From a virus: DNA of 64,000 bases. Positions within the stretch are counted from its first letter, which is position 1. Each line of letters starts with the position of its first letter. Both the position numbers and the translations under genes were made by a program. The DNA lies in IMG/VR virus record IMGVR_UViG_3300036886_000363, positions 1-64,000 of that record; one strand, given 5' to 3'. Under the pieces are notes generated by a model. It had not been told where the DNA came from. It ran no database searches and saw nothing but the letters and a program-made list of their open reading frames with translations. Positions 40,081 to 62,792 of the stretch are shown here, in pieces.

Positions 40081-40112
40081 ATCTCCTCCTTTCTCTTCTC
40101 TAAGTTTTGTTT

Positions 40113-40170
40113 GATCTCATCAGTGCTGTCATTAACAGCAGACCCGGGCATTCTATCCCGGGTTTCGATC
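40113..40170 (-). ncRNA. hammerhead ribozyme (type II), copy 1
   Basis: GAUC-GAAA-CCCGGG(auagaaug)CCCGGG-UC / UGCUGU(uaaug)ACAGCA-CUGAUGA-GAUC; complete catalytic core; predicted cut 40141/40140. Confidence 0.88.
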
Positions 40171-40176
40171 TTTGAG

Positions 40177-41061
40177 TTAGAATTGGATATCTCTCTTGAG
40201 TGGTGTATCAATGTAAGTATTGATCTGCTCAAGGAGCTTCTCCGCTACTTTGGCGACCTTCGTCTTCGTCTTGTCATTTTGCAGGTCTGTATCAGAGATG
40301 CTTGCCACCTTCAAATTTACCTCGCCCAGAGTTTCCGTGAGGGCTTTGTCTCCGGAGATATTGAGAACCGGGAGCAACGAGATCAAATCGCGCAGGCCTG
40401 ACATGACAGCCTTATCTTCTTGAAATCTCATTCTATCGGCGCTCAGGCGATCAACGATTGTCTTCACCGCCTCTGCCAATCTCTTCCAAAGATCCTTGGA
40501 GATATTGCCGTAACGATCAGAGATCGAGCCGACTAAGTTTTTCCTGACCTCTGCGAGAAGTTTTTTGTTTGCTTCGATTACAAAATGCCCGCTATTAGGA
40601 ACCGGGAAGTAATCAATCTGGATCGACCACTTTGCCGCGAATTCGTCGAAGCTCAGATAATCATTTTCATCCCAGAGATCGCCCAGCGATGCCTTCGCCT
40701 TTACAAAGACCGCCTCTTGATACTTCGGTTTAAAGTCTATCAATTTGTCTTTCAATTCCTGAGAAAGCTCTTCATGGGTTTTGTTAAGTTTCTCCATGTT
40801 GGCGACGGGCAGCATCCGGACTCCTTTTGTCCATGGAACGGTCAGGGAATAAAACATCTTGAGCATTTTTCTTTGAGTATAATGGAGAGGTCCGGCATCT
40901 GTCAAGAGCTTCTTGATTACCCGGGCGCTGGTCTCATCGGCATGCTTTCTCGTTGTAAGTTCATCGGAAGCTTCTTTGTCATGTTTATTGACACCAAACT
41001 CTGTCATGGTAAGGTCAGCCAGTACCGCCACTTTTCCTAAATCTTGAATTTCTTCTTTCAT
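40177..41061 (-). CDS. DUF3150-like early protein ending in KRDIQF
   Basis: Helical 294-aa protein with KHDKEAS...KKLL...VPW..GVRMLP...DYLS pattern; follows the AAA/DUF1257/DUF2997 genes. Confidence 0.55.
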   Translation of the reverse strand: MKEEIQDLGKVAVLADLTMTEFGVNKHDKEASDELTTRKHADETSARVIKKLLTDAGPLHYTQRKMLKMFYSLTVPWTKGVRMLPVANMEKLNKTHEELSQELKDKLIDFKPKYQEAVFVKAKASLGDLWDENDYLSFDEFAAKWSIQIDYFPVPNSGHFVIEANKKLLAEVRKNLVGSISDRYGNISKDLWKRLAEAVKTIVDRLSADRMRFQEDKAVMSGLRDLISLLPVLNISGDKALTETLGEVNLKVASISDTDLQNDKTKTKVAKVAEKLLEQINTYIDTPLKRDIQF

Positions 41062-41098
41062 GATTGTTCTCCTTTTTATATGAGTTGTAAGTTATTGG

Positions 41099-41299
41099 TT
41101 AGTGAGAATGTGCATGATCGTGATCGTGAGCCCCGTGATCGGCATCTGGATCCTCTTCAATAGTGACCTTGCCGCCCATAAGTTTATCCATCTTTGTGAG
41201 AAGCTCGTCAGCCGACATATGATTGCCGCTGCTGATCTCAGATGTCGTGACAACGATCGTTCCGTCTTCCAATATTTTGAATGTGATGCTATCTGCCAT
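41099..41299 (-). CDS. DUF2997-like small protein with His-rich tail
   Basis: MADSITFKILEDGTIVVTT...MGGKVT; tail DHGAHDHDHAHSH. Confidence 0.6.
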   Translation of the reverse strand: MADSITFKILEDGTIVVTTSEISSGNHMSADELLTKMDKLMGGKVTIEEDPDADHGAHDHDHAHSH

Positions 41300-41310
41300 G
41301 ATTGACCTCC

Positions 41311-41643
41311 TTAAAATCTTTGGAGCTGGAAAGTATTTTCGTCCAGCTGATTTTTGAACCACTGATCCTCTTCGCTGATCTCATCAATGACACACTCGCT
41401 ATATGTCCTCTTGAGCGAGTTGGAGAAGTCTGCAAGTTCTCTGTCATTCATGCTTGTGCTTTGCAGCATCCCGTTTCGGAGATCGATGACAAAAGAGTTG
41501 TATCCACCGCTATTTGCGACGATTGTATATCCATCGCTTCTCATATAATGTCCGAGTCCTTGTTTCTCCAAAGCCTTTTTCAGGATATCAATATTCTCAA
41601 CTCTGAATTGAACTGTTGCTGTTCTTATCTCGTAGCAAGGCAT
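41311..41643 (-). CDS. DUF1257/Ycf35-like protein
   Basis: TVQFRVENIDILKKALEKQG...LKRTYS...; synteny with the AAA ATPase and DUF2997. Confidence 0.6.
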   Translation of the reverse strand: MPCYEIRTATVQFRVENIDILKKALEKQGLGHYMRSDGYTIVANSGGYNSFVIDLRNGMLQSTSMNDRELADFSNSLKRTYSECVIDEISEEDQWFKNQLDENTFQLQRF

Positions 41644-41667
41644 ATTCTGTTCCTCCTCTAAGTTTTG

Positions 41668-41695
41668 TGAAGGGGCAGGGATGACCTGCCCTTGT
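41668..41695 (-). terminator. GC-rich hairpin after the AAA ATPase (weak terminator or processing stem)
   Basis: GGGCAGG-tcatc-CCTGCCC-CTTTC. Confidence 0.4.
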
Positions 41696-41699
41696 TTGA

Positions 41700-43256
41700 T
41701 TACATATCAAGTTTGCGACCGGAAGATTTCTTTTCGGCGACGACCATTGCCTTTGATGCCGGGACTGTCCTGCCTTCCTTCCATTGAAGCAACCAATCGA
41801 TATCTTCCTTCATAGTTTTGCTTATGGGAAGAATGAGCTGATCGGCGTCGTTGGCATCTTTGCCTTTTGAAATCTTCTTAGCTGCGAGCTTGCACCAAGT
41901 CTCAAGTTCTGCTCCCGACCACCCTTCTGTATCTACTTTCGGGCATGCCTTTGCAGGCAGACCGTAGACTTTTTTGTGATGATTGAGAATCGCTTCTCTC
42001 TCTGCGATGTTCGGCAGATTGACAAAGATCGGAGCTGTATCCCACCTGCCTGCCCGTAAGTATTCAGCGGGCAGAGAGGAGATATCGTTGCAGGTCGCGA
42101 AGACAATTATTCCCGGGATCCGATTGCTCAGAAATTTAAGGAGCAGTGAATTGCTTCTGTCTGTCGATCCGCTATCTCCACCACCTTGTCTTCCCATCTT
42201 TGATGTTCCGGCTAATCCTTTTTCCAGTTCATCGATGAAGACATAAATCGGATTTAATGGATTTGCATTGGCTGTGATGACTGCGATTGATTTCGCATAG
42301 GCATTCTCTTTCTGCCCGACGAGACCTTCACCTTGCATCTGCGCCAATTCCCACTCGATGCACATTGTATCGTAATGCGCGGCGAGCAGCTGAACGAATC
42401 TTGATTTGCCAGTCCCTGGAGGGCCGACAAAGATCATGCCCTTTGCATTTGGATCATCTCTCCACTCATCGGCTAATTCTTTGGCAATCTCGAAGCCAAT
42501 CAGATCAGTGAGCTTGCCTGTATACTTACCAATCTTTAATCCGGGTGTTGAGTTGATCTCTTCAGCCCTCAATTCCTCGACTGTCTTTGGATCAAAGTAT
42601 CCAGCATTCTTGACGAGGCTGTAAGAGAAAACTTTGATGATCTCTGCGCTGCTCAGACCTTTCGCGCCGGCAATGATCCTCTGCTTATCTTTGGTATCTG
42701 GCTCTTTGAACTGTGGATTTCCCTTTGCCGAGTAAACAATAAACTGATAAAGGGTCTCGATCTCTTTTTCATCGGGCAGGTCGTAGCTGACCTTTGCAAA
42801 TTCCCTCTTGAGAATAGACGGGATCGCTTTATCGAAGCTTTCCTCTCCGACGATGATAAGTATCTTGCGATACTCGGGAGATGAAAACTTCGTCGATCTG
42901 TTTAGCAGCCATGCAACGGTCTCTTTATTTGACTTGCCGTATTGATCGACGACAAACCAGTTATAGTTTTTTGCGATCACGATTTGCCCGGCTTCGATCT
43001 GGTCTCTCTCCTCTCTGATATTTTCGAGGAGGTTAATCATCTCTTTTGGATTGTTGTACTTGCTCTGCCCATTGTCTCCTGTCGACTCATAATCCCAAAC
43101 GGCAACCCGATATTTCGTGCCGTTGGTGTTTGCCTTGAAATATTCTTCGAGGCTGTCTTTGACATCTTGGACTGTCTTGTTTGGTTCTTGAGTCTCAATG
43201 TAAAAATAAGCATATCCGCTCTTGATACCGAATATCAATTCTGATGTTCCTTTCAT
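41700..43256 (-). CDS. Ycf46-like AAA+ ATPase
   Basis: Degenerate N-terminal AAA; GPPGTGKS, FIDELEK, ATCNDISSLPAEYLRAGRWD, EGWSGAELE. Confidence 0.85.
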   Translation of the reverse strand: MKGTSELIFGIKSGYAYFYIETQEPNKTVQDVKDSLEEYFKANTNGTKYRVAVWDYESTGDNGQSKYNNPKEMINLLENIREERDQIEAGQIVIAKNYNWFVVDQYGKSNKETVAWLLNRSTKFSSPEYRKILIIVGEESFDKAIPSILKREFAKVSYDLPDEKEIETLYQFIVYSAKGNPQFKEPDTKDKQRIIAGAKGLSSAEIIKVFSYSLVKNAGYFDPKTVEELRAEEINSTPGLKIGKYTGKLTDLIGFEIAKELADEWRDDPNAKGMIFVGPPGTGKSRFVQLLAAHYDTMCIEWELAQMQGEGLVGQKENAYAKSIAVITANANPLNPIYVFIDELEKGLAGTSKMGRQGGGDSGSTDRSNSLLLKFLSNRIPGIIVFATCNDISSLPAEYLRAGRWDTAPIFVNLPNIAEREAILNHHKKVYGLPAKACPKVDTEGWSGAELETWCKLAAKKISKGKDANDADQLILPISKTMKEDIDWLLQWKEGRTVPASKAMVVAEKKSSGRKLDM

Positions 43257-43298
43257 GGCTTTTCTCCCTTTAAGTTTTGTCTGAGTTATTTGTTCATT

Positions 43299-43649
43299 TT
43301 ATAGTTTTTCATGTATCTTCTGGATCTCTCTCCATGAGAGACTATTGAAACATTCTTCGCTGCAAAAATCTCCCTTATTTGTTTTTTTGTAGGCTTCATT
43401 GTGGAATAAGAATTGACCGCATACAACACAGGAATTTTCATAATCTTCTTTTTTATTGATTTCTTTGTCCATCAGATTTTTCAGCTCGGTGTAAATCAGG
43501 CTCTTGCATGTCTGGTGGCTAAGCTTATCCAGATCATAATTGTAATCCATCAAAAGTTCTGTGATGTCATCTGTCCATGAATCTTCGAGTTTGTCGAAGA
43601 GATATGCCGCTAATTGATCGATCGTCTTTTTTGTAAGTTTTGTCTTCAT
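43299..43649 (-). CDS. hypothetical early protein with C-terminal TRASH-like zinc finger
   Basis: CVVCG...FCSEEC. Confidence 0.5.
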   Translation of the reverse strand: MKTKLTKKTIDQLAAYLFDKLEDSWTDDITELLMDYNYDLDKLSHQTCKSLIYTELKNLMDKEINKKEDYENSCVVCGQFLFHNEAYKKTNKGDFCSEECFNSLSWREIQKIHEKL

Positions 43650-43756
43650 GATTATCTTCCTCCCTCTCTTAAACAAGCGTGCATGAAAATGATTATCCAA
43701 ATAACTAAACCGCCCATCATTGCCGCAAATCCTGTCATGATATTTTCCTCCCTAAG

Positions 43757-43981
43757 TTATGCTCCGATTGTTAAGTAATAACCGGCGGCTGTTACTCTGA
43801 TTTTGCCGTTTGGCTTGTTGATAAATAATGGACATGATCCGGTAAAATGGATGATTGCCTCTGCAATCAGGTCCAGATTCTCTTTTGAAGAAATTGTTGA
43901 GTTTATCCGGTTTTTCCAGTTCTTTTTATTGCTGACTTTGTTAAACGCTTCTTTCAATTGTTCCTGAGAATATTTTTTCAT
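43757..43981 (-). CDS. hypothetical early protein (first gene after the early promoter)
   Basis: MKKYSQEQLKEAFNKV...AAGYY; GGAGG RBS. Confidence 0.55.
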   Translation of the reverse strand: MKKYSQEQLKEAFNKVSNKKNWKNRINSTISSKENLDLIAEAIIHFTGSCPLFINKPNGKIRVTAAGYYLTIGA

Positions 43982-44006
43982 GATCTTTTCCTCCAAAATT
44001 TATTTT

Positions 44007-44060
44007 GATCTCATCAGTGCTGTCATTAACAGCAGACCCGGATTTAACCGGGTTTCGATC
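44007..44060 (-). ncRNA. hammerhead ribozyme (type II), copy 2
   Basis: GAUC-GAAA-CCCGG(uuaaau)CCGGG-UC / UGCUGU(uaaug)ACAGCA-CUGAUGA-GAUC; predicted cut 44035/44034. Confidence 0.88.
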
Positions 44061-44207
44061 TAATAACCTCATGGGAGATTTCCAGTCATCCCTCAGATCA
44101 AGACTTGATGTTGCCCTGCCAACCTTCTGGCAGGATCGGCGTTGGATCGCCTCTCTCTGATTATGTGCATGTTGTTTTTTTCTTGATCCCTCTGTCTTGT
44201 TGACCTA

Positions 44208-50274: not shown

Positions 50275-50473
50275 GCCTGTAAAGTGCGGGGATCCCCTTG
50301 CTCCTCAGCTCATAGCAACGAAGCCCTGCATTCCATTGACGACAATGGAAGATTATCTTCAATGTCTTGTCGCCAATACTGGCATCCTCGCAAATGATCT
50401 CAATGAAATGAACGGATATACGGAGAAGCTCGAAGATGCAGTACGCTGCTACAAATCTTCAAACACAAAGTAG
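50168..50473 (+). CDS. Rz1-like outer-membrane lipoprotein spanin
   Basis: Signal peptide with lipobox LIQGC; Pro/Cys-rich; overlaps the 3' end of the i-spanin. Confidence 0.65.
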   Translation: MKHRKNLMICLLLPIVLSLLLIQGCAHRQELVVPNEPVKCGDPLAPQLIATKPCIPLTTMEDYLQCLVANTGILANDLNEMNGYTEKLEDAVRCYKSSNTK

Positions 50474-51785
50474 CACTATTCCGGAGATCATTGTCCGGCT
50501 CCCGATGCCGACTCCGAAGCAGCGGGATTTTATTTACAGTCCTGCCAAACGGAAAATAGTTAAAGCCGGAAGGCGAGGAGGCAAGACTGTTGGTGTCGGT
50601 ATAATGGGGATCGAAGACTTTATGTCTAATTATAGGGTCTTGTATGCAGCGCCGACTCAGGAACAGATTGCGAGATTCTGGTTTACGGTTTGCAAGGCAT
50701 TGGAAGAGCCCCTTGAAAAAGGATATCTCTACAAAAATGAATCGGATCACATTATTGAATGGGAAGATTGGATCCTCAAGAAATGGCAGGAACAGGGAAT
50801 CGACCGATCTGAAAATAGGATACGGGCAAAGACAGCATGGAATGCAGATACCCTTCGAGGAGATTATGCAGACAAGCTGCTTCTCGATGAGTGGCAGTTA
50901 ATGAATGAGGATGCATGGGGATATGTCGGAGCGCCCATGCTCATGGATACAAATGGAGATGTCGTTTTTATTTACACCCCTCCGAGTCTCCAATCAAGAT
51001 CGGTAAGCAAAGCGCGGGATCCCCAGCATGCCGCAAAGCTCTTTAAAAAGATATCAGCGCTACAGAAGGTAAGGCCAGACAGATATGCTGCATTCCATTT
51101 TACATCTCGTGACAATCCTCATCTCAGTGAAGAGGCTCTAAACGAGATCGCAGATGATATGACATCTGAAGCTTATAGAATGGAAATTCTCGCAGAGGAT
51201 CTTGATGAAGCGCTCGGCTCTCTCTGGAAGCGTGCGACAATCGAGAAGTATCGAATCCAGACATGGGATACAGAAAAGCTTCCCCGCGAGTATGAACTTA
51301 TTATGGTTGGTGTCGATCCCTCTGCAACAAGTACGGGTGATGAGGCGGGGATAATTGCAGCAGGCAAGAAAGGGAAAGAAGGATTTACACTTAAAGATGC
51401 GTCTGTCCAAGGATCTCCTCTCACATGGGCAAAGGCCGCTGTTGCTTTGTACCACGATCTCAAGGCGAATAAGATCGTGGCAGAAGCTAACAATGGAGGA
51501 GAGATGGTTTCGACGGTTATTGCTCAGGTTGATCCCAATGTCCCCGTCACTCTTGTCCATGCGTCAAGAGGCAAGCAGACAAGGGCTGAACCTGTTTCTG
51601 CTCTTGCCGAGAAGGGGAAGGATCATCATGTAGGCAATTTCCCATATCTCGAAGATGAAATGTGTTTATGGGTGCCCGGAAGGCCATCTCCGAATAGGAT
51701 GGATGCAAAGGTCTGGGCTTATACAGGACTTGGATTGGTCGGTACTGGCGGTACTGATTGGGAGGCAGTTGTCGGAGGAAATTAA
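50436..51785 (+). CDS. terminase large subunit
   Basis: AGRRGGKT, LLDEW, YTPP, DNPHL, VGVDPS, EANNGG, SPNRMDA. Confidence 0.93.
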   Translation: MQYAATNLQTQSSTIPEIIVRLPMPTPKQRDFIYSPAKRKIVKAGRRGGKTVGVGIMGIEDFMSNYRVLYAAPTQEQIARFWFTVCKALEEPLEKGYLYKNESDHIIEWEDWILKKWQEQGIDRSENRIRAKTAWNADTLRGDYADKLLLDEWQLMNEDAWGYVGAPMLMDTNGDVVFIYTPPSLQSRSVSKARDPQHAAKLFKKISALQKVRPDRYAAFHFTSRDNPHLSEEALNEIADDMTSEAYRMEILAEDLDEALGSLWKRATIEKYRIQTWDTEKLPREYELIMVGVDPSATSTGDEAGIIAAGKKGKEGFTLKDASVQGSPLTWAKAAVALYHDLKANKIVAEANNGGEMVSTVIAQVDPNVPVTLVHASRGKQTRAEPVSALAEKGKDHHVGNFPYLEDEMCLWVPGRPSPNRMDAKVWAYTGLGLVGTGGTDWEAVVGGN

Positions 51786-52156: not shown

Positions 52157-53788
52157 ATGCCAATACTTGATAAGGTAAAACCAATAATAGATTACCCGCG
52201 TTGGAGACAACCTGCACCAACCCTTAACGCTCATGCTGCTGGATCTGCGATTTGTTTTGACAAGAGGAATGATAATAGCAGGCATCCCCTTCTATATCAA
52301 CTTGTCTCCGCGGCGGTATTGAATGCCTATGATCCAAGACAGGACGGATGGTCATTCGTTGGCAACCCCGGCCTCTCTGCCTTTGGAGCTGGATCGTGTG
52401 CAGTATTTTGTCCTTCTCAGGGAGTCAGGGGAACACTGGGCAGCGGTTCGACGAGCACTTCAATTGTCGTTGGAAGTGTTCTTACTGCGGTTATCGCAGG
52501 GCAACTTACGGGAAATAGAATCCGCATGATCGGGAATAATAATGCGGGAAGTTGCGGGAGAATAGAAGAGAGAATGATAATTGGCAACTCTGCAGGAACA
52601 AGTCCTACAATTTATCTCGATAGTCCTCTTTCATATTCCTACATAAGTGGCGATGCATTTGAAATTCATTCGGGCAGGGTCTATATGTTGGGCACGACAG
52701 CTGGAGCAACCCAGTTGAGATATTATGATACGATTTATCAGACATTGACAAGTGCAGGCAATACCACCTTGACAATCGCGGTTGATTCTGAAATGGTTTG
52801 TCTCGATGAAGACTATGTCCCTTATGATAGAAAGCCTGGCGAGGGGTTGGTTGTTACATCTTCTTCTCCTGCAATCACTTACGATACTGGAGGGATCGTA
52901 AAGTATTGTTTACAGGCATCTGCGGTGGGAGTTGGAACAGTGACAGGATCTGCAGCGGGGGGAGACAATAATATTCTTGCAAATGAATATCGAAATTTCC
53001 AGATTAGGATTGTCGAAGATACGACAACTCCAACTGCTGTTGGACAAAGGGCTACAATCGCGTCTCATACGGCAGGAGCTGCTTCTCCTCTTATTGTTTA
53101 TACTCTGGGCGCCAACTGGGGAGTGAGGCCTTCAAACAATGCCAAGTATGTCATCGAGAATCCGAATGTCATATTGCTCTTCGCTCAGGCTGCGGGCACA
53201 ACAATTTATACTTATAATCCGACACCTGCGACAATCAATAATGGAACAAATACGATCACAACAGGAGCTTTCTCCACGCCCTATTTCGGAGTGAGGGGTT
53301 CGGCTGTTGGAGCAGGAACTTTTTATCTTCCATCATGGTCTCATGAGCCTGTTCTCAATGCAGACGGAACAAAACAATCTCGTCATAGTTTCATTTACTC
53401 TATCAGGGGAGGAGGCGGCACTCAGATTGATATGCTTGATATTGCCGGAGGTACGACAGGAGCCTGGACAAATGCTCTTGCATATATTGGTCAGCAGACA
53501 GCATTCAATACTGCTTCTTGTGGGAATATGGCTCCATTCGATCAGAATGGAATGTATGGATATTGTATTCTAAATGCAACAAATAATATGTATCGTTTTG
53601 ATATCAAGAATAGAATCATGTGGCCATGGAAGCAGTTGCCTGTTCAGTCCGGAGCCGCGGCAGTGGGAGGAAGAGTTGAAATAATTCCATATATGACTAC
53701 AGGAAATTCTCCGACAGACAAAGTGAGTCTGGTATTTGTAAACAGTCATCTTTCAACGGTCATGTATAGGGCGGAGGTAATATCATGA
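52157..53788 (+). CDS. beta-rich virion structural protein (possible propeller or receptor-binding)
   Basis: 543 aa, G/A/T/S-rich with repeated beta motifs. Confidence 0.55.
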   Translation: MPILDKVKPIIDYPRWRQPAPTLNAHAAGSAICFDKRNDNSRHPLLYQLVSAAVLNAYDPRQDGWSFVGNPGLSAFGAGSCAVFCPSQGVRGTLGSGSTSTSIVVGSVLTAVIAGQLTGNRIRMIGNNNAGSCGRIEERMIIGNSAGTSPTIYLDSPLSYSYISGDAFEIHSGRVYMLGTTAGATQLRYYDTIYQTLTSAGNTTLTIAVDSEMVCLDEDYVPYDRKPGEGLVVTSSSPAITYDTGGIVKYCLQASAVGVGTVTGSAAGGDNNILANEYRNFQIRIVEDTTTPTAVGQRATIASHTAGAASPLIVYTLGANWGVRPSNNAKYVIENPNVILLFAQAAGTTIYTYNPTPATINNGTNTITTGAFSTPYFGVRGSAVGAGTFYLPSWSHEPVLNADGTKQSRHSFIYSIRGGGGTQIDMLDIAGGTTGAWTNALAYIGQQTAFNTASCGNMAPFDQNGMYGYCILNATNNMYRFDIKNRIMWPWKQLPVQSGAAAVGGRVEIIPYMTTGNSPTDKVSLVFVNSHLSTVMYRAEVIS

Positions 53789-55621: not shown

Positions 55622-56662
55622 ATGCTTCTTTATGATTTCTTGAAAGGTCTTCCCGGAAGCAGATATTTGAAAACCAGAGATGCTGGTTTCAAGGAGGAAG
55701 AGCATCCTCGTGGACAGCCGAATAATCCCGGGCAATTTGTTGAAGGGGGAGGATCGAGTTCATCCGGATCCGAGGAGTCTGAATCAAAGAAGGAAGAATC
55801 ACAGTCACAGGAGAAGAGTAACGAAGAGAAACTGAAAGAGGCGAGAAAGGCTCACAAGGAAGCGCGGGAGAAAAATGATTTTGATGAAATGGTAAAACAT
55901 CGAAAGACCATAAATGAACTCGAAAAAGTATTGGCTCCTCCTCCTACAGAGATCGGCAAGACGACATGGGAAGAACAGGCAAAGAGACAGGTCGCGAATA
56001 GATATATCAAGGCCAACTTCAATATTAATAGTGTCTCTGGATCAATCGAGCAGGTCAATGCAACTGGCAGTCATTTATCGAAGCTTTGTAATCAATTCCC
56101 GGAAGTGCATTTCCAGTTAAAGAAACATCGTATGAGTTTTATTAAGTATCAGGGAGAGAATGAAGTTCTTAAATCGAGATATGGACATGAAATGGGAAGA
56201 AGATCTCGGGGAGTTTATGAGGACAAAACGGGAGATGGTGCAATGCCTGCAATTACAATGAAGGCTTTGAAAAGAAGAGATGCACTTAAATTTGATACAG
56301 ATGCTGGCAAGGTTGGATATGTTTTTGGCTCGGAGAATAATGGGCACAGCGATGGAGATGTTTTGAATCATGAATTAGGCCACCACATGATGTTTTGCAT
56401 AGGTAAAAAAGCCCGAAGAGAATGGTATGATGTTTGTGAAAAAATGGGAGGGTCTATTGCTCTGGAAAAGACAGTTTCAAAGTATGCTGGAACAATAATA
56501 AAAGCAACTCCAATGGGAGTTGATAGAAATCCGGAAGATTGGTATCAGGAAGGATTTGCAGAGAGTTTCGCAAAATTTACAAATCCTAATTATAAGAAAG
56601 GCAATCTGCCTCAATCAATTGAAAATTATATGACCAAGTATTTTAAAAAGGACAAATCATGA
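55622..56662 (+). CDS. head-associated zinc metallopeptidase-like protein with shared leader and EEEHPRG motif
   Basis: MLLYDFLKGL...TRDA, FKEEEHPRGQPNNPGQF; HELGHH, VSKYA, EGFAESF. Confidence 0.75.
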   Translation: MLLYDFLKGLPGSRYLKTRDAGFKEEEHPRGQPNNPGQFVEGGGSSSSGSEESESKKEESQSQEKSNEEKLKEARKAHKEAREKNDFDEMVKHRKTINELEKVLAPPPTEIGKTTWEEQAKRQVANRYIKANFNINSVSGSIEQVNATGSHLSKLCNQFPEVHFQLKKHRMSFIKYQGENEVLKSRYGHEMGRRSRGVYEDKTGDGAMPAITMKALKRRDALKFDTDAGKVGYVFGSENNGHSDGDVLNHELGHHMMFCIGKKARREWYDVCEKMGGSIALEKTVSKYAGTIIKATPMGVDRNPEDWYQEGFAESFAKFTNPNYKKGNLPQSIENYMTKYFKKDKS

Positions 56663-56862: not shown

Positions 56863-57432
56863 ATGCTTCTCTATGATTTCCTAAAAGGATTGAAGGGCAG
56901 CAAGTATCTCAAGACAAGAGATGCGATGTCGATTCCCTTCACTCCCGAGCATTTTAGTGAAGAGTGGAAAGCAGATCAGAAGAAGGTTTTGAAAGAGACT
57001 TATCCAGATTTGAGTGAGGATGACTCCCTTCACGAGATCAACTTTCAAGGACTGACGATCTCGATAGAGAATCCGGAGGGATCAACCCGGGAAGGCACGA
57101 AGCCTGACGGCTCTCCATGGCAGACAAAATTCTTTCATCCATATGGCTTTATAAAACATACATTAGGAGTTGATGGGGATGAGGTTGATTGTTTCATCGG
57201 CCCGAATCCGACATCACAGAATGTTTATATCATCCATCAGAGGATTAATGGAAAGTATGATGAAGATAAGGTCATGCTGGGCTTCGATGATGAGGAGCAT
57301 GCAAGAGATGCCTATTTGGCGCACTATGACACCCAGCAGAGGTTAGGCCCTATTACATTCATGCCGTTCAGCCAATTCAAGGAAGTTCTTGAAGAGAAGG
57401 GCAAAGCAGGAATCAAACTAAAAGAGGATTAA
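56863..57432 (+). CDS. inorganic-pyrophosphatase-like domain protein with shared leader
   Basis: MLLYDFLKGL...TRDA; IENPEGSTREG, YGFIKHTLGVDGDEVDCFIG, YDEDKVMLGF. Confidence 0.8.
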   Translation: MLLYDFLKGLKGSKYLKTRDAMSIPFTPEHFSEEWKADQKKVLKETYPDLSEDDSLHEINFQGLTISIENPEGSTREGTKPDGSPWQTKFFHPYGFIKHTLGVDGDEVDCFIGPNPTSQNVYIIHQRINGKYDEDKVMLGFDDEEHARDAYLAHYDTQQRLGPITFMPFSQFKEVLEEKGKAGIKLKED

Positions 57433-57435
57433 TCA

Positions 57436-60207
57436 ATGTCAAAAAAGAAGACAAAAGATTCAACGCCGGATTTCAAGAGAGATTTTGTTGAACCAATAAG
57501 AAGAGCAGCAGACAATATCGGAGGAGTATTGCCTCCACAACTTGTCTCTTCAGCTCTCCCTCTCTTGCAGCCTTATCCTGTAATTACTCAACCTCCGGTC
57601 TGGAGAAAAAGATATGGTGTAGATGATTCTGTCCCCAAAGATGCGACATTGAAACAATCATCGATGGCAACAGACAGCTTCGCAAATTTTACTGCTCGTC
57701 TGGGGATCCAGGCCAGCAATATATCTTCTACGGCAGGATATGCACTCGGACCTTTCATCACGAGAAACAGAATCGCTCTTGAAGCAGCTTATCGTGATAG
57801 TTGGGTTGTCGGGAAGGCGATTGATTGCATCGCCGAAGACATGACTCAAGCTGGGATTTCGATGCATTCCAAATTGAAACCAGCGGAGATCAAAGATATG
57901 CAAGTTGCTATCAGCGAATTCAAGATATGGCATGATCTGGGAATGGCGATCAAGTGGGCAAGACTTTATGGAGGTTGTCTTGCTGTCATGATGATAGACG
58001 GACATAATTATGAAGCTCCTCTCGACATTACAAGAGTCGGGAAAGATAAATTCAAGGGGCTTGTTGTCCTTGATAGATGGATGGTTCAACCCAGTATGGG
58101 AGAGTTAATAACCGATCTGGGAACGGATATTGGCATGCCGAAATTCTATCAGGCGATGCCGGGGGTCTCTACTTTCCCATCAAAGAAGATCCACCATACA
58201 CGCTGTCTCCGATTTGACGGGATCGAGCTTCCTTATTATCAGAAATTGTTTGAAAATCTCTGGGGATTGTCTGTCGTCGAAAGATGCCTCGATCGTCTTC
58301 TGGCCTTCGATTCTGCAACTCAGGGTGCTGCCCAGTTGTTGTATAAATCTCATCTCCGGGTTATCAGGGTGAAGGATTTTCGTCTTGCCCTTGCTGCAGG
58401 TGGCAATCAGGAAGAGGCCATGATGAAGATGTTCATGTATATCCGGTCAATGCAGACAAATGAAGGATTGACAGTCCTTGATGCTGAAGACGAATTTGCG
58501 ACTCATTCATATACCTTTGCAGGTGTGTCGGATGCCCTCCAGCAGTTCGGCCAGCAGATCGCCGGTTCTATTGATACTCCTCTCGTCAGGTTATTTGGAC
58601 AGAGTCCTGCCGGATTCAGTACGGGAGATACCGACATAAGAAACTATTATGACGGGATTAAGAAGAGACAGGAGAACGATCTCCGTCCCCGGCTTGATCC
58701 ATTGCTTGCAGTCATAGCGATGTCGAGGTTAGGCCATGCCCTCCCCGATGACTTTGAATTCAAGTTTATCCCATTATGGCAAATGTCTGAGAATGAAAAA
58801 TCAGAGATTGCAGGCAAGGTTGTTGATACGGTTGTCAAGGCAAAGGATGCCGGGTTAATCCCTCTGCATACCGCGATGAAAGAGTTGCAGGAATCTTCCC
58901 GGATAACTGGAGTATTTACAAATATAACCGATGAGGATATTGAAGAAGCCGAGAATAATCCTCCTGAAGCTCCGATGCCGGGAGCACCCGGTGCTGAGGG
59001 CGGGCCAGAAGGAGGAGAGAAGAAGCCAGATGAAACAAAAGGAGCCGAAAAGCCAAATGAGAGACTCGGAGCTGCGGATCCCGATGTTGAAAAGGAGAAG
59101 ATTCCTGAAAAAGAAACTCAAGATGTCGGGAGATCATCTGTTAGAGATATTTTTAATATTTGGAGAGAGAAGAGAAGGAAGATATTAAATTCTCTTGATA
59201 CGATTTTTAAAGAGGAAGAACATCCCAGAGGATCAGGGGAGAAAGGCGGGCAGTTTGTCAGCAAGGGGGAAGGTGGAACATCGGGAAAGAAGGAAGGAGA
59301 AGGTAAAGAATCTAAAGCGGGAACACAGACAGTCAAGCGCACTAAGTCTACCCAGTCTTTTGAAGAGACGAAACGGGATAAAGAAGGCAAGGTCGTATTG
59401 TCATCGGGCAAGCCTCTTCCAAAGCATATGGTTAATACCTATATAGCACCGGCGTGGGAAAATGTCCTTATTAATCCCGATCCCAAAGGAGACTTGTGGG
59501 CTGTTGGTCATAACAAGGAAGGTAAAATTGTTGGCTGGGTCTATAGTGATGAGCATAATAGTGGGAAGGACATTGCTAAGGATAGTATGTACCAAGAGCT
59601 GAGAAAGCAATATACGTCTATCGTTCAACAGCTCAATAACGATTATAAGGATAAGGATAAAAAGGAGTCAGCTTTCGTTACAAAGATAATAGCTAACACT
59701 GGTGCAAGGATAGGCAGTCAGAAAGAAGCTATCGGCATAAAGGGGATAAAAACTTACGGCGCATCGACGCTAGAAGCGAGACATATAGTTGCTGAGAAAG
59801 ACGGTACGGTTAAATTAGATTTTATTGGTAAAGACGCCAAGCGTAATATCTACACTGTTACAGATAAGAAGGTTGCCGATGAGTTGAAGAGTTTGGTAGC
59901 AGGTAAGAAGCCTGCGGATAATTTATTTGCTGCCAATTATAATATGTGTCTTAATTATGTCAAGTCTCTTGATGGTGGAGGATTTACTCCTAAGAGTTTT
60001 AGGCTTAAGATAGCGACGGACTTAGCATTGCAAACAATGAAGACAATGGGAGCGCCAACAGATCCAAAAGATTATAAGAAGAAGGTTTTGGCGGTTGCCA
60101 AAACAGTAGCCGAACAATTAAATAATACTCCAGCAATAGCTTTGAAGCAGTATATAGTCGCAAGTATATGGACTGACTGGAAGACTAAAGCCGGAGTCGG
60201 GGTATAA
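57436..60207 (+). CDS. portal protein (DUF1073-like) fused to C-terminal DNA topoisomerase IB
   Basis: YRDSWVVGKAIDCIAEDM, WARLYGG, IHHTRCLRFDG, PLVRLFGQSPAG, FIPLWQMS; then PAW, GARIG, LDFIGKD, PKSFR, LNNTPAIALKQYI. Confidence 0.88.
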   Translation: MSKKKTKDSTPDFKRDFVEPIRRAADNIGGVLPPQLVSSALPLLQPYPVITQPPVWRKRYGVDDSVPKDATLKQSSMATDSFANFTARLGIQASNISSTAGYALGPFITRNRIALEAAYRDSWVVGKAIDCIAEDMTQAGISMHSKLKPAEIKDMQVAISEFKIWHDLGMAIKWARLYGGCLAVMMIDGHNYEAPLDITRVGKDKFKGLVVLDRWMVQPSMGELITDLGTDIGMPKFYQAMPGVSTFPSKKIHHTRCLRFDGIELPYYQKLFENLWGLSVVERCLDRLLAFDSATQGAAQLLYKSHLRVIRVKDFRLALAAGGNQEEAMMKMFMYIRSMQTNEGLTVLDAEDEFATHSYTFAGVSDALQQFGQQIAGSIDTPLVRLFGQSPAGFSTGDTDIRNYYDGIKKRQENDLRPRLDPLLAVIAMSRLGHALPDDFEFKFIPLWQMSENEKSEIAGKVVDTVVKAKDAGLIPLHTAMKELQESSRITGVFTNITDEDIEEAENNPPEAPMPGAPGAEGGPEGGEKKPDETKGAEKPNERLGAADPDVEKEKIPEKETQDVGRSSVRDIFNIWREKRRKILNSLDTIFKEEEHPRGSGEKGGQFVSKGEGGTSGKKEGEGKESKAGTQTVKRTKSTQSFEETKRDKEGKVVLSSGKPLPKHMVNTYIAPAWENVLINPDPKGDLWAVGHNKEGKIVGWVYSDEHNSGKDIAKDSMYQELRKQYTSIVQQLNNDYKDKDKKESAFVTKIIANTGARIGSQKEAIGIKGIKTYGASTLEARHIVAEKDGTVKLDFIGKDAKRNIYTVTDKKVADELKSLVAGKKPADNLFAANYNMCLNYVKSLDGGGFTPKSFRLKIATDLALQTMKTMGAPTDPKDYKKKVLAVAKTVAEQLNNTPAIALKQYIVASIWTDWKTKAGVGV

Positions 60208-60216
60208 GGAGGCGTT

Positions 60217-60375
60217 ATGGAAGATTATCCAGAGACACAATACGGAAATATTAGAACAGATAAATTTGATTGGCGCAAGTATAGTAACGATACGGATGAC
60301 GATGTTGATGAACCTGCGTCTGCTATGCTAATTAAAATGTTGGGGTTCAATCCCGACGAGGACGAAGAGGAATAA
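60217..60375 (+). CDS. small acidic protein downstream of the TopIB domain (52 aa)
   Basis: Manual translation MEDYPETQYG...FDWRKYSNDTDDDVDE...MLGFNPDEDEEE; AGGAGG RBS. Confidence 0.6.
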   Translation: MEDYPETQYGNIRTDKFDWRKYSNDTDDDVDEPASAMLIKMLGFNPDEDEEE

Positions 60376-60545
60376 TGTACACCCTCCCATACAGAACGAC
60401 AGAAGCTCCCAAAGATGAGAAGGCCTATAAAAAAGCGGTTCTCAAGGTTGCAAAAGAGGTCGCAGCCAAACTCGGCAATACTCCTGCAGTTGCTCTGAAG
60501 GCCTATATTAGTCCTGTAGTTTTTGCGCAATGGAGGACAAAGTAA
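60375..60545 (+). pseudogene. orphan second TopIB C-terminal fragment (56 aa)
   Basis: MYTLPYRTTEAPKDEKAYKKAVLKVAKEVAAKLGNTPAVALKAYISPVVFAQWRTK aligns with the portal-TopIB C-terminus. Confidence 0.75.
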
Positions 60546-60997
60546 TGTTGCTCACCGATATGAGGATAAGGAAGGGAAGATTCATACAAAAAGATGCTGA
60601 AGAGGTTTACAAAGGAATCGGCTCTTTATTGGGAGAAGCAGGTCATGTTGAATCTGGATTAATCGAATTATTCGCCGATAACAAAAAAGTGAAAGATAGC
60701 GAGATTCATAAAATGGCTGAACAACTGGGTTGGGAGGCTGATAAATTGGAAGAGATGGTTTATTCCCTCCTTCAGTCATTCCTTTCTCAGGGCAAGTTTA
60801 TGAAGGAGGGGCAGGGCAAACAATTCGATGATAAAGAAGTTGAGATGGGAAAGAAAGTCGAGCTTGAACATACAAACAATCCCATTCTCTCATTGAGAAT
60901 AACATTGGATCATTTAACAGAGATACCAGACTACTATACTCGATTGGCGCAGATGGAGAAAGAAGGGAAGGCGGCAATGAAGGGAGGACAAGAATAA
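60545..60997 (+). CDS. DUF5661-like head-region protein with shared leader
   Basis: Start MLLTDMRIRKGRFIQKDA (TAATG overlap); EVEMGKKVELEHT...DHLTEIPDYYTRL. Confidence 0.7.
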   Translation: MLLTDMRIRKGRFIQKDAEEVYKGIGSLLGEAGHVESGLIELFADNKKVKDSEIHKMAEQLGWEADKLEEMVYSLLQSFLSQGKFMKEGQGKQFDDKEVEMGKKVELEHTNNPILSLRITLDHLTEIPDYYTRLAQMEKEGKAAMKGGQE

Positions 60998-61749
60998 TGG
61001 CAGACCTGATTCAAGACTTACCGGAAGCTCCTTTTCAAAAGTCAAAGGCGATCCAGGAGGAGTATGCCCGTGCTCTGAGAGGGGTATCCAGACAAGTTGG
61101 AAATTTAATTAAAGGTTACAACCCGACCGATCCTCTTTCAGCAGAGAGGTTAAGGAAAGCGCTGAGAGCTTATTCAGAACTTATTGGGCCATGGGCAGAG
61201 ACAATCAGCAAAAGGATCCTTGTGGCTGTCAACAATCAAGATTACAATGCTTGGAGGCAGCATAGCCGGGAAATGTCCCTCAAGATGAGGCAAGAGATAT
61301 TGTCGTCAAATGTGGGCGAGACCTTTCAAAGACTCATGAGGGAGAATGTCGAACTCATCAAATCGATACCTTTGAAGGCTGCAGAGAGAGTCCATGAATT
61401 GGTCACAGAGAATCTTATGCAGAGCGCCCGGGCAGATGAGATATCACAGAAGATAATGGAGTCCGAGAAGGTATCCAAAGTGGTCGCAACCCGGATTGCC
61501 CGGACAGAGATTGCAAGAGCATCGAGTACTTTGCTTCAATCAAGGGCTTTGTCTATTGGGAGTACGGGCTACATTTGGAAGACCTCTAAAGATTTGTTAG
61601 TTAGGAAATCACACAAGATAATGGAAGGCAAATTTATTAAGTGGAATGATCCGCCAAAACTAAGTGATGGTACGATAACCCATGCCGGGCAAATTTACAA
61701 TTGCAGATGCTGGCCGGATGTTCAAATTCCTGAAGGAAATTATTCATGA
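60997..61749 (+). CDS. phage head morphogenesis protein (MuF / SPP1 gp7 family)
   Basis: RIARTE, YIWKTSKD..VRKSH, HAGQIYNCRC. Confidence 0.9.
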   Translation: MADLIQDLPEAPFQKSKAIQEEYARALRGVSRQVGNLIKGYNPTDPLSAERLRKALRAYSELIGPWAETISKRILVAVNNQDYNAWRQHSREMSLKMRQEILSSNVGETFQRLMRENVELIKSIPLKAAERVHELVTENLMQSARADEISQKIMESEKVSKVVATRIARTEIARASSTLLQSRALSIGSTGYIWKTSKDLLVRKSHKIMEGKFIKWNDPPKLSDGTITHAGQIYNCRCWPDVQIPEGNYS

Positions 61750-62411
61750 AATATGAACTTTATAATTTAATCTTTCTGAATGGGAAAAGATACATTGGAA
61801 TTTCTCAGGATTCAAAGAAAAGATTTGTAACCCATAAAGCGCTTGCGAGAAGTGGATATCCTCAAGCTGTTTATAGAGCAATTAGAAAATATGGAGATAA
61901 TTCAGTCAAACTTAAAATTTTGGCTGTTGGAGAAAAGGATTATATTCTTGAAATGGAAAAGAAAGCTATTTTTATTTTTAAAACAATGAATAAGAAGTTT
62001 GGGTATAATATGTCTCCCGGAGGAGAAATAAGTCCTGTTGCTGGCATTGGTCATTCGAAGAAGAGTAAAAGAAAAATGAGCATCTCTCAAAAAAATAGAA
62101 TTCATACTCCAGAAGAAATTGCTAAGATGGCTGCTTCTTTAAAGGGAAGAGTTTTTTCAGAAGAACATAAAGAGAAGTTAAGCTTTGCCGCCTCCAAAAG
62201 AAAGATCCCAGAACAGATAAGAACAAAAATAAGTGCTTCTTTAAAAGGAAATATCCCGTGGAATAAAGGGATCCCTCGTTCTAATGAAGTTAAAAGAAGA
62301 ATATCTGATTCTTTAAAAGGACATTCAGCGACGATTGGTTTTACTGGCAGAAAACATTCTGAAGAAACAAAACAGAGAATGAGAGAATCTCATTTGAAAA
62401 GGGTTGCGTAA
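61746..62411 (+). CDS. GIY-YIG homing endonuclease with NUMOD3 repeats
   Basis: LYNL...KRYIGIS...R...H, E, GYNMSPGG; HSEETKQRM-type repeats; AT-rich. Confidence 0.85.
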   Translation: MKYELYNLIFLNGKRYIGISQDSKKRFVTHKALARSGYPQAVYRAIRKYGDNSVKLKILAVGEKDYILEMEKKAIFIFKTMNKKFGYNMSPGGEISPVAGIGHSKKSKRKMSISQKNRIHTPEEIAKMAASLKGRVFSEEHKEKLSFAASKRKIPEQIRTKISASLKGNIPWNKGIPRSNEVKRRISDSLKGHSATIGFTGRKHSEETKQRMRESHLKRVA

Positions 62412-62426: not shown

Positions 62427-62792
62427 ATGTTGCTCAGTGATTTTTTATCCAAAGGCGTCAAGAACGGGATGTATGCAAAGACAAAAGAGGGGAAGGCTTT
62501 TGCCCGGGATGCCTCAATATTAAAATCAAATAAAGACTCCGACATCATAATCAATATTAATGTTGGAGAAGGAGATCAGCCCGGGCCAGAGATCATAGCG
62601 GCAGAGAATGTTGAAATCCCCGCAGAGACACCGACCAATACAGAGGGCACAGAGTATAAGGGATATACAATCAAGCAAGAGAATGATGGCAGATTTCTTA
62701 TCTACTCGATTGGCGGTGCACTGATAACCGAAGCGGCTTCCCTTGAGCTTGCCATGAATATCATTAATGGAATGGCGATAGATGGAGAATAA
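62427..62792 (+). CDS. head-region protein with shared leader
   Basis: MLLSDFLSKG...FARDA; C-terminal EYKGYTI. Confidence 0.6.
   Translation: MLLSDFLSKGVKNGMYAKTKEGKAFARDASILKSNKDSDIIININVGEGDQPGPEIIAAENVEIPAETPTNTEGTEYKGYTIKQENDGRFLIYSIGGALITEAASLELAMNIINGMAIDGE

Follow-up and report, generated by a model that had tools for sequence, protein, structure and literature searches.

Enzymes fused to the portal or MuF proteins of tailed phages have been predicted to act as effectors that are packaged in the virion and injected (Iyer et al. 2017; PMC5512222), and fusions of portals to PBECR, 2H and InPase domains, such as the portal-InPase protein BcepF1.124, are listed there. Type IB topoisomerase (TopIB) does not occur in the main text of that paper, where "topo" appears only in the title of a reference. 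Among viruses, vaccinia has a type I topoisomerase, described in PMC12188299 as functioning mainly in early transcription, and the TopIBs of bacteria have been proposed to come from an undiscovered viral group (Forterre & Gadelle 2009; PMC2647321). Here, we describe a gene in IMG/VR record IMGVR_UViG_3300036886_000363, a linear viral contig of 83,436 bp (ca. 90% complete according to CheckV), in which an uncultured peat phage encodes a portal and a TopIB as a single protein of 923 amino acids (aa), as read from the translation of its open reading frame (ORF). Positions 1 to 64,000 of the record are referred to below as the window; features beyond it are given in genome positions.

The arrangement follows the pattern of portal/MuF-fused effectors, and the TopIB cargo appears to be new to that pattern. 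As in the polyvalent proteins of Iyer, Burroughs, Anand, de Souza and Aravind (2017), an N-terminal virion anchor (portal or MuF) precedes a C-terminal enzyme cargo, and the gene lies among head genes; as in those proteins, the cargo is shuffled among portal-linked, MuF-linked and free forms, together with ART-PolyVal, InPase, NUDIX, 2H, Zeta toxin and Acb1 domains. Unlike them, the fusion protein holds one enzyme, not several (InPase and DUF5661 are separate genes here), and its TopIB cargo comes with an acidic partner gene of its own and with a recurrent motif, which we call the HPR tag. A full-text literature search returned no description of a portal-, MuF- or virion-linked TopIB in phages, and none is described in the accessible portion of a jumbo-phage survey (PMC7824862).

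Of the described topoisomerases, that of Deinococcus radiodurans (2f4q/3m4a) is the best match in both sequence and fold; it shares the two-domain layout and the catalytic set R-K-R-N-Y, with Asn at the fourth position, and is ca. 24% identical to the phage TopIB (3m4a). The poxvirus TopIBs (vaccinia/variola; 2h7f, 1a41) are, like the phage domain, small two-domain enzymes of DNA viruses, but they are free proteins, not fused to a structural protein, and their sequence similarity to the phage TopIB is weak (expectation value, E, 0.0059). In poxvirus TopIBs, the fourth catalytic residue is His instead of Asn, and these enzymes are not known to have an acidic partner. The vaccinia topoisomerase is reportedly encapsidated, going by the title of a 1987 paper of Shaffer and Traktman. 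Six cellular TopIBs, all from Gammaproteobacteria, were also compared (excluding a seventh whose genome is unpublished). They are free-standing proteins of 350-411 aa with neither partner (0/6) nor HPR tag (0/6), score 28-56 bits against the phage TopIB, and form one separate branch with a support of 100.

The fusion gene, its parts and its catalytic codons are as follows (pLDDT, predicted local distance difference test; PDB, Protein Data Bank).

57436-60207, plus strand: portal-TopIB fusion gene, 923 aa, coordinates including the stop codon (ORF list and translation; identity of contigs)
57436-57750, plus strand: N-terminal extension, aa 1-105, predicted to be disordered (pLDDT mostly <50), with a [KR]DA motif at aa 68-70 (VPKDATLKQ; motif scan)
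57751-58953, plus strand: portal fold, aa 106-506 (Pfam, phmmer to solved portals, pLDDT ca. 80-94)
58954-59139, plus strand: acidic, Pro/Gly-rich disordered linker, aa 507-568 (sequence; pLDDT <50 for aa 511-567)
59140-59205, plus strand: lone predicted helix, aa 569-590 (full-length model, pLDDT ca. 64-76)
59206-59352, plus strand: HPR tag FKEEEHPRGSGEKGGQF, aa 591-607, then a Gly/Lys-rich disordered stretch to aa 639 (disordered in both models)
59353-60204, plus strand: type IB topoisomerase, aa 640-923 (Pfam, PDB alignment, conservation, AlphaFold2, Foldseek)
59707-59709, plus strand: codon of R758 (PDB alignment, as for the next four)
59830-59832, plus strand: codon of K799
60001-60003, plus strand: codon of R856
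60124-60126, plus strand: codon of N897
60151-60153, plus strand: codon of Y906

An initial annotation, made from the letters of the window, had described a single 923-aa ORF without internal stop, and this is confirmed by translation and by contigs from four sequencing runs. Logan contigs of runs X1 and X5, possibly the source sample, cover 57400-60600 unbroken and with 0 differences, and fragments from X15 and X16, which belong to other studies, are also identical. Neither indels nor joints were seen in these contigs, and there is no stop codon between the domains. Among the runs listed for the junction stretch, none was an RNA run, which has no bearing on expression. The start codon of the gene is supported by N-terminal sequence partly common to a relative, P0016.

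Pfam matches PF06381 (Phage_portal_3, the DUF1073 family) to aa 114-466 with an E of 3.1e-105 (352 bits against a cut-off of 33.8), in agreement with the DUF1073-type portal of the initial annotation, and PF01028 (Topoisom_I) to aa 710-902 with an E of 4.2e-20 (72.5 bits against 23.7; 76.3 bits in a genome-wide search). The gene is the only match to either family within the 83,436-bp record. The acidic, Pro-containing linker and the EEEHPRG motif noted earlier are present in the sequence (FKEEEHPRG, aa 591-599, nucleotides (nt) 59206-59232), and the C-terminal TopIB is complete, as had been claimed, although it starts at ca. nt 59353 (aa 640) and not at 59410. A model of the full-length protein, built on an alignment of 29 fusions, has a mean pLDDT of 72.6 and a predicted template modeling score of 0.42; the low value of the latter fits two bodies without a fixed mutual position.

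When the C-terminal 335 residues were compared with PDB sequences by phmmer, the best match was Deinococcus TopIB 2f4q (E 8.1e-12), followed by human Top1 and variola TopIB. R758, K799, R856, N897 and Y906 (positions counted by hand) align with R137, K174, R239, N280 and Y289 of 2f4q, which we take to be its catalytic residues, and the catalytic set read earlier from the motifs GARIG (R), IGKD (K), KSFR (R), LNNT (second N) and KQYI (Y) holds at all five places. Across 39 relatives, R758, R856 and Y906 never vary, and conservation of K799 and N897 is at least 90%. In a larger set of 250 relatives, described below, the pentad R-K-R-N/H-Y is intact in 241, which argues that catalysis is under selection; two of the 250 are truncated.

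An AlphaFold2 model of aa 589-923, computed with the alignment of the 39 relatives, has a pLDDT above 90 for aa 640-923, while aa 589-639 are disordered. The model gave 22 Foldseek matches at E <=0.001, TopIB throughout among the matches listed, the best being 3m4a (5.9e-14), 2f4q (5.0e-13) and DNA-bound variola TopIB 2h7f (7.7e-13 over 294 columns). Tyrosine recombinases reached an E of 1.9e-2 at best. Because variola TopIB aligned over 294 columns, both the N-terminal and the catalytic domain are present, the former as a beta domain at aa 640-703 and the latter at aa 705-923. The modeled fold, its structural matches and the alignment with 2f4q agree on a TopIB fold with aligned catalytic residues. 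PF21338, the Pfam family of the bacterial N-terminal domain, scored 18.9-20.2 bits in the fusion protein, below the cut-off of 27 bits, and was found in 70 of 94 relatives (55/70 and 15/24; E <=1e-4). Judged from these residues and this fold, the TopIB domain is apparently catalytically competent.

Relatives of the fusion protein were sought in several collections. Among 50,697 GenBank phage records, similarity is confined to the portal part (aa ca. 60-502) in 1515, and no record covers 80% of the protein. The TopIB part has 8 weak matches in the same records, all without a link to a portal (27-32% identity; Rhizobium phages, phiRSL1 and one uncultured phage). A word-indexed metagenome search, limited to proteins of 507-1616 aa, gave 26 matches; 19 have both PF06381 and PF01028, and others join a Mu-type (PF06074) or lambda-type (PF05136) portal to TopIB. 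Portal, InPase and TopIB are united in one protein in relatives P0021, P0031 and L014, and in P0021 DUF5661 is part of the same chain. An exhaustive search of representative sequences returned 3040 clusters at E <=0.001 (the weakest of which will include cellular TopIBs), 1601 at 1e-10 and 398 at 1e-30. In IMG/VR, an alignment-based scan confirmed 182 relatives among 196 candidate stretches, and 80 loci were kept for locus counts. A scan of viral contigs with a single protein yielded 8 pattern matches and 0 confirmed relatives, and a pattern search of bacterial genomes yielded 8 stretches, all in metagenome bins. Three of these bacterial stretches (L085, L089 and L090), in which phmmer found no TopIB, were rejected as probable chance matches. 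L100 (an unpublished genome), duplicate sequences where stated and, from the tree, TopIB domains shorter than 200 aa were left out.

The pooled set contains 250 TopIB-bearing proteins (170 from the protein searches and 80 locus ORFs) with 234 distinct TopIB domains. In-house hidden Markov models (HMMs) labeled 72 of the 250 as PF06381 portal fusions, 5 as PF05136 fusions, 2 as PF06074 fusions and 73 as short stand-alone genes. As the in-house anchor HMMs were under-sensitive (no MuF was found, and L028 was missed), Pfam tallies, which are counts and not per-protein labels, were used instead for the 94 distinct remaining long proteins. The anchors found in these were MuF (14), Portal_Mu (8), Phage_portal_2 (2), Phage_portal (2) and DUF2213 (3), and the co-fused domains were NUDIX (10), InPase (7), ADPrib_exo_Tox (7), ART-PolyVal (4), Zeta_toxin (2), 2H-type ligase (2) and anti-CBASS Acb1 (1). 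Portal fusions make up at least 91 of the 250 proteins, and at least 108 carry some head-interior anchor. TopIB is thus found fused to four portal Pfam families, to MuF or to a head protease. Ten of the 80 loci contain TopIB and a portal as separate genes, and 8 of these also have MuF. On a FastTree tree of 240 domains, at least 30 changes between the portal-fused and the stand-alone state were counted, a rough figure, since support is low on many branches and fragments from contig edges may be mistaken for stand-alone genes. One relative (L012:3942-8936) is a 1665-aa protein with MuF, an intein splicing domain and TopIB, and intein domains occur in 3 of 24 long TopIB proteins.

Two small ORFs follow the fusion gene.

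60217-60375, plus strand: acidic partner gene, 52 aa (HMM, sequence); the Shine-Dalgarno sequence TAAGGAGG, directly 3' of the TopIB stop, lies 4 nt before its ATG
60375-60545, plus strand: 56-aa ORF with an orphan TopIB C-terminal tail (GNTP...KAYI; tblastn), joined to both neighbors by TAATG overlaps

The partner has 17 acidic and 5 basic residues and the motif DWR...acidic run...MLGFNPDE. An HMM of the partner, whose consensus motif is LPDVHFG...DWR...acidic run...TPxDVxxMLGFDP, has this ORF as its sole match in the window (E 3.4e-18) and matches 75 of the 80 viral TopIB loci; the five loci without a match have 1-821 nt of DNA past TopIB. In 65 non-redundant loci, the motif belongs to a separate ORF and begins no more than 120 nt past the end of TopIB 52 times, belongs to a separate ORF farther away 9 times, and is fused to TopIB in frame 4 times. 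Each of the 61 separate ORFs has a start codon; 40 encode short proteins, and in 21 the partner makes up the N-terminus of a longer protein that comes next. Expression of the partner through a frameshift or read-through is ruled out by these start codons and by the split of reading frames (33/22/6). In L014 (E 1.1e-08) and L017 (E 2.6e-17), the match to the HMM lies on the strand opposite to TopIB. The partner belongs to no Pfam family (0/60) and has no relative in the PDB (best E 0.15). It is absent beside all six cellular TopIB genes, and its adjacency is specific to phage-borne TopIB (75/80 viral against 0/6 cellular loci).

Complex prediction of TopIB with the partner gave a median score of 0.70 (0.67, 0.70 and 0.83 in individual runs), as compared with 0.02 for the best control. 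Of 80 solved complexes, 58 reached that mark, as did 2 of 110 mismatched pairs. Contact agreement between runs was at least 55%, and the pLDDT of the partner was at least 64. The confident part of the predicted interface comprises aa 698-721, K799, aa 848-854, N897, aa 899-905 and aa 909-922, i.e., the active-site cleft, and the prediction supports binding of the partner there. The structural part of the initial annotation stands, in that the portal is joined to a complete TopIB whose catalytic set is intact; the breadth of the cassette, the acidic partner gene and the portal/MuF-effector pattern had been missed.

The orphan tail is a second copy of the last ca. 48 residues of TopIB, including the positions of the catalytic Asn and Tyr. 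Its segment 60402-60536 shares 80% identity with the C-terminal end of P0016 (170 high-scoring segment pairs in all in the tblastn search), and it is nearer to the family consensus than the tail of the fusion gene itself. Since such a tail was found in 1 of 81 sources, i.e., in this phage alone, it is read as a local recombination scar, left when the present 3' part of TopIB and the partner gene replaced an older end, and not as a family habit; habitual swapping in the manner of polymorphic toxins was rejected as a family trait on the same count.

The surroundings of the fusion gene bear on whether it encodes the working portal. Early and replication genes occupy the minus strand to ca. 44 kb, and late genes lie on the plus strand. 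The relevant genes are these.

50436-51785, plus strand: large terminase TerL (late module)
55622-56662, plus strand: 346-aa protein with an HExxH motif and a leader (sequence)
56863-57432, plus strand: InPase-family gene (PF18823, E 4.4e-42), leader MLLYDFLKGL...TRDA
60545-60997, plus strand: DUF5661 gene (PF18905, E 1.1e-11), probable start at the ATG of MLLTD (60545), TAATG junction
60997-61749, plus strand: MuF-like head protein (PF04233, E 1.3e-14)
61746-62411: homing-endonuclease-like gene with GIY-YIG and NUMOD3, between MuF and the next leader-bearing head gene
62427-62792: leader-bearing head protein
genome 66415-67554: leader-bearing head protein, beyond the window
genome 68273-69784, plus strand: DUF2213 head protease (protease-scaffold), late module

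On the 3' side of the protease, a cement protein (PF22758) is followed by the major capsid protein (PF09950), genome 70526-71515, and then by genes for neck, sheath, tape measure and baseplate hub; the phage is a myovirus. As the only PF06381 portal in a record that is ca. 90% complete, the fusion protein must serve as the portal, and its place between TerL and the MuF, DUF2213 protease, cement and major capsid genes likewise marks it as a working portal. No other portal family was found among the late proteins scanned with Pfam or PHROGs, a scan that covered part of the late proteins and did not search portal families singly; several late proteins (e.g., 52157-53788) have no match in Pfam or PHROGs. 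In the 64-kb window, Rfam detected no RNA family at its gathering threshold, the stretch 40112-44061 included, and ARAGORN detected no tRNA.

By phmmer, the portal part matches the portals of Pam3 (gp3, 8hds; E 4.4e-34) and E217 (gp19, 8fvh; E 1.5e-14). Both have a homologous fold and a matching set of head genes and were deposited as 12-chain assemblies; neither carries a topoisomerase. The match to the 621-aa Pam3 chain ends at residue 404, leaving ca. 215 residues beyond it. Crown and barrel are the C-terminal parts of a portal. The homologous solved portals are described as having the barrel, the crown, the wing, the stem and the clip ordered from the inside to the outside (PMC9942802). 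Given this homology, the TopIB extension should face the interior of the head, and portal stoichiometry would place up to twelve copies of TopIB in each head.

What lies between portal and TopIB was compared among 29 fusions, and the HPR tag, F-x-E-x-x-HPRG-x-G-x-x-GG-x-F, is the only conserved element there. Of 241 relatives, 97 have an HPR-like motif in the 130 aa upstream of TopIB, as compared with 21 occurrences in 75,968 residues elsewhere; a count of 97/241 rules the tag out as an obligatory part of the cassette. The window has two such motifs, one in the portal and the other N-terminal in the product of the ORF at 55622. In this latter product (55622-56662), the leader and a second EEEHPRG tag are accompanied by a stretch rich in Ser and Glu and, C-terminally, by an HELGHH motif; it has no match in Pfam, PHROGs or PDB; weak leads from the Atlas are ATLF (17% of members) and M90 (20%). 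A possible zincin or processing peptidase, it was kept as a lead only, and a role in processing was set aside, its basis being the HExxH motif and the weak Atlas leads.

Five head-module proteins of unrelated families, those marked as leader-bearing above together with the 55622, InPase and DUF5661 products, have in common a leader at the N-terminus (MLLYDFLKGL... or MLL.D...), with [KR]DA as its end at residues 16-27, and the predicted helix at aa 569-590 of the fusion protein resembles, by eye, such leaders of adjoining head proteins (that of ORF 55622). Of 17 [KR]DA motifs in 11,618 late-gene residues, 16 are in head-module proteins and none is in a tail protein; four lie in the C-terminal half of the DUF2213 protease-scaffold and one at aa 68 of the portal. 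This distribution suggests a capsid-targeting leader with a cut site for the head protease.

In the reading that we favor, with a probability of about 0.5, TopIB is loaded into the head, is masked by the acidic partner and acts on the phage's own genome. The portal would carry a competent TopIB on a flexible linker of ca. 135 residues, attached to the end that is inside the head, and each virion would be built with up to twelve copies beside the DNA gate. By occupying the DNA cleft, the acidic partner would hold the enzyme off DNA during portal and prohead assembly, until packaged DNA displaces it. The enzyme would then most likely serve as an ATP- and Mg-independent swivel on the phage genome at its exit, during its first transcription and during replication, for which the virion-packaged enzyme of poxviruses is a precedent; with at most twelve copies, the host chromosome fits less well as a substrate than one incoming genome. 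The fusion itself, the fold, the conserved residues, the recurrence on head-interior anchors and the near-obligate partner gene are observed and speak for this reading, in which the location in the head, the inhibition by the partner and the substrate are inferred.

Several points weigh against it. The phage is uncultured, and both the presence of TopIB in the virion and its activity are predicted. The seven closest relatives (P0004-P0007, P0009, L004 and L005) have Asp in place of Asn at the fourth catalytic position (R-K-R-D-Y). The score of the complex expresses the confidence of a model run with our own alignments, and is a measure of neither affinity nor inhibition, and the topology with the C-terminus inside comes from homology and general knowledge. 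A motif scan found no [KR]DA in the linker (aa 507-640); this phage has LDT at the place where [KR]DA-x-F-x-E-x-E-HPR stands in some relatives. Linkers are not enriched in the motif family-wide either (1.26 versus 1.10 per 1000 aa, with one present in 13 of 54 fusions), and [KR]DA as a general site of TopIB release is thus not supported. With no such motif in the linker and no enrichment across the family, release of TopIB from the portal lacks support, and a folded enzyme of 33 kDa, if still attached to the portal, could not exit from the head.

This last point favors the strongest competitor, which we hold to be possible but clearly less probable: TopIB would never be released, but would clamp DNA at the gate and bleed off twist during packaging and/or ejection. 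Such torsion relief was one of two functions offered in the initial annotation, the other candidate being cleavage followed by injection. Packaging motors rotate DNA. The linker without [KR]DA suits such a tethered enzyme, its length and disorder would let the enzyme reach the axis of the channel, and all the anchors (portals, MuF, protease-scaffold) put TopIB inside the head. However, TopIB is often a free gene or is joined with ART, NUDIX, Acb1 or Zeta-toxin domains, which make sense only in the host cell, and most phages manage packaging with no enzyme of this kind. It is doubtful whether a nicked duplex would rotate at the density of packaged DNA, and a partner that blocks the cleft is harder to fit to an enzyme needed when DNA enters.

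The same co-fused domains (ART, Zeta toxin, NUDIX, Acb1), host-directed or anti-defense in kind, would fit an injected effector that relaxes the host chromosome, thereby shutting off the host, or counters a topology-dependent defense, the acidic protein being the immunity factor in the producing cell. An enzyme with a tightly linked small acidic partner does resemble a toxin-immunity pair, and the orphan TopIB tail resembles the displaced ends in polymorphic toxin loci. Yet twelve molecules or fewer per infection would face hundreds of host gyrase molecules, the tail occurs in 1 of 81 sources, so that the family does not habitually swap cassettes, the catalytic domain is conserved (241/250 intact) rather than hypervariable, and no release site is evident in this phage. 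We regard this explanation as unlikely.

Poxvirus TopIBs form covalent 3'-phosphotyrosyl adducts, and strand transfer by them is possible. An enzyme placed where the last-packaged, first-ejected end of the genome would lie might, by analogy, cleave near that end and stay covalently linked to it, shielding it from exonucleases on entry, or joining it to the other end and so circularizing the genome without ligase or ATP. This idea is purely speculative, since no target site was identified and the record, being linear and incomplete, does not define the genome ends, and we consider it very improbable. Finally, that the fusion is an assembly chimera or hides a missed stop or frameshift, or that TopIB is a decaying passenger, could be argued from the record being a single metagenome-derived contig, but can practically be dismissed given identical contigs from four runs, the same order of domains in dozens of independent fusions from other samples, and catalytic residues conserved among relatives.

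Returning to the favored reading, of a head-loaded TopIB masked by its partner, a topoisomerase carried in the virion is textbook knowledge for poxviruses, with no phage description found, and the finding suggests that some phages, like poxviruses, carry one. This genome adds the orphan tail, a predicted partner interface over the active site and a linker without the putative protease motif. The C-terminal domain and the 52-aa candidate inhibitor of no known family make a ready pair for biochemistry. A far-reaching version, in which tailed phages build TopIB into the virion as a twelve-fold tethered swivel at the gate, silenced by a DNA-mimicking partner, and in which the phage-borne clade (398 clusters at E <=1e-30) is the viral source of bacterial TopIB envisaged by Forterre and Gadelle, strikes us as bold and rather doubtful as a whole. 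The clade is by itself a candidate, on an unrooted tree, for their undiscovered viral group, and its large size and viral carriage allow the viral origin of bacterial TopIB to be tested. If true, a portal-tethered, ATP-independent swivel would bear on how twist is handled while a phage genome is packed and ejected.

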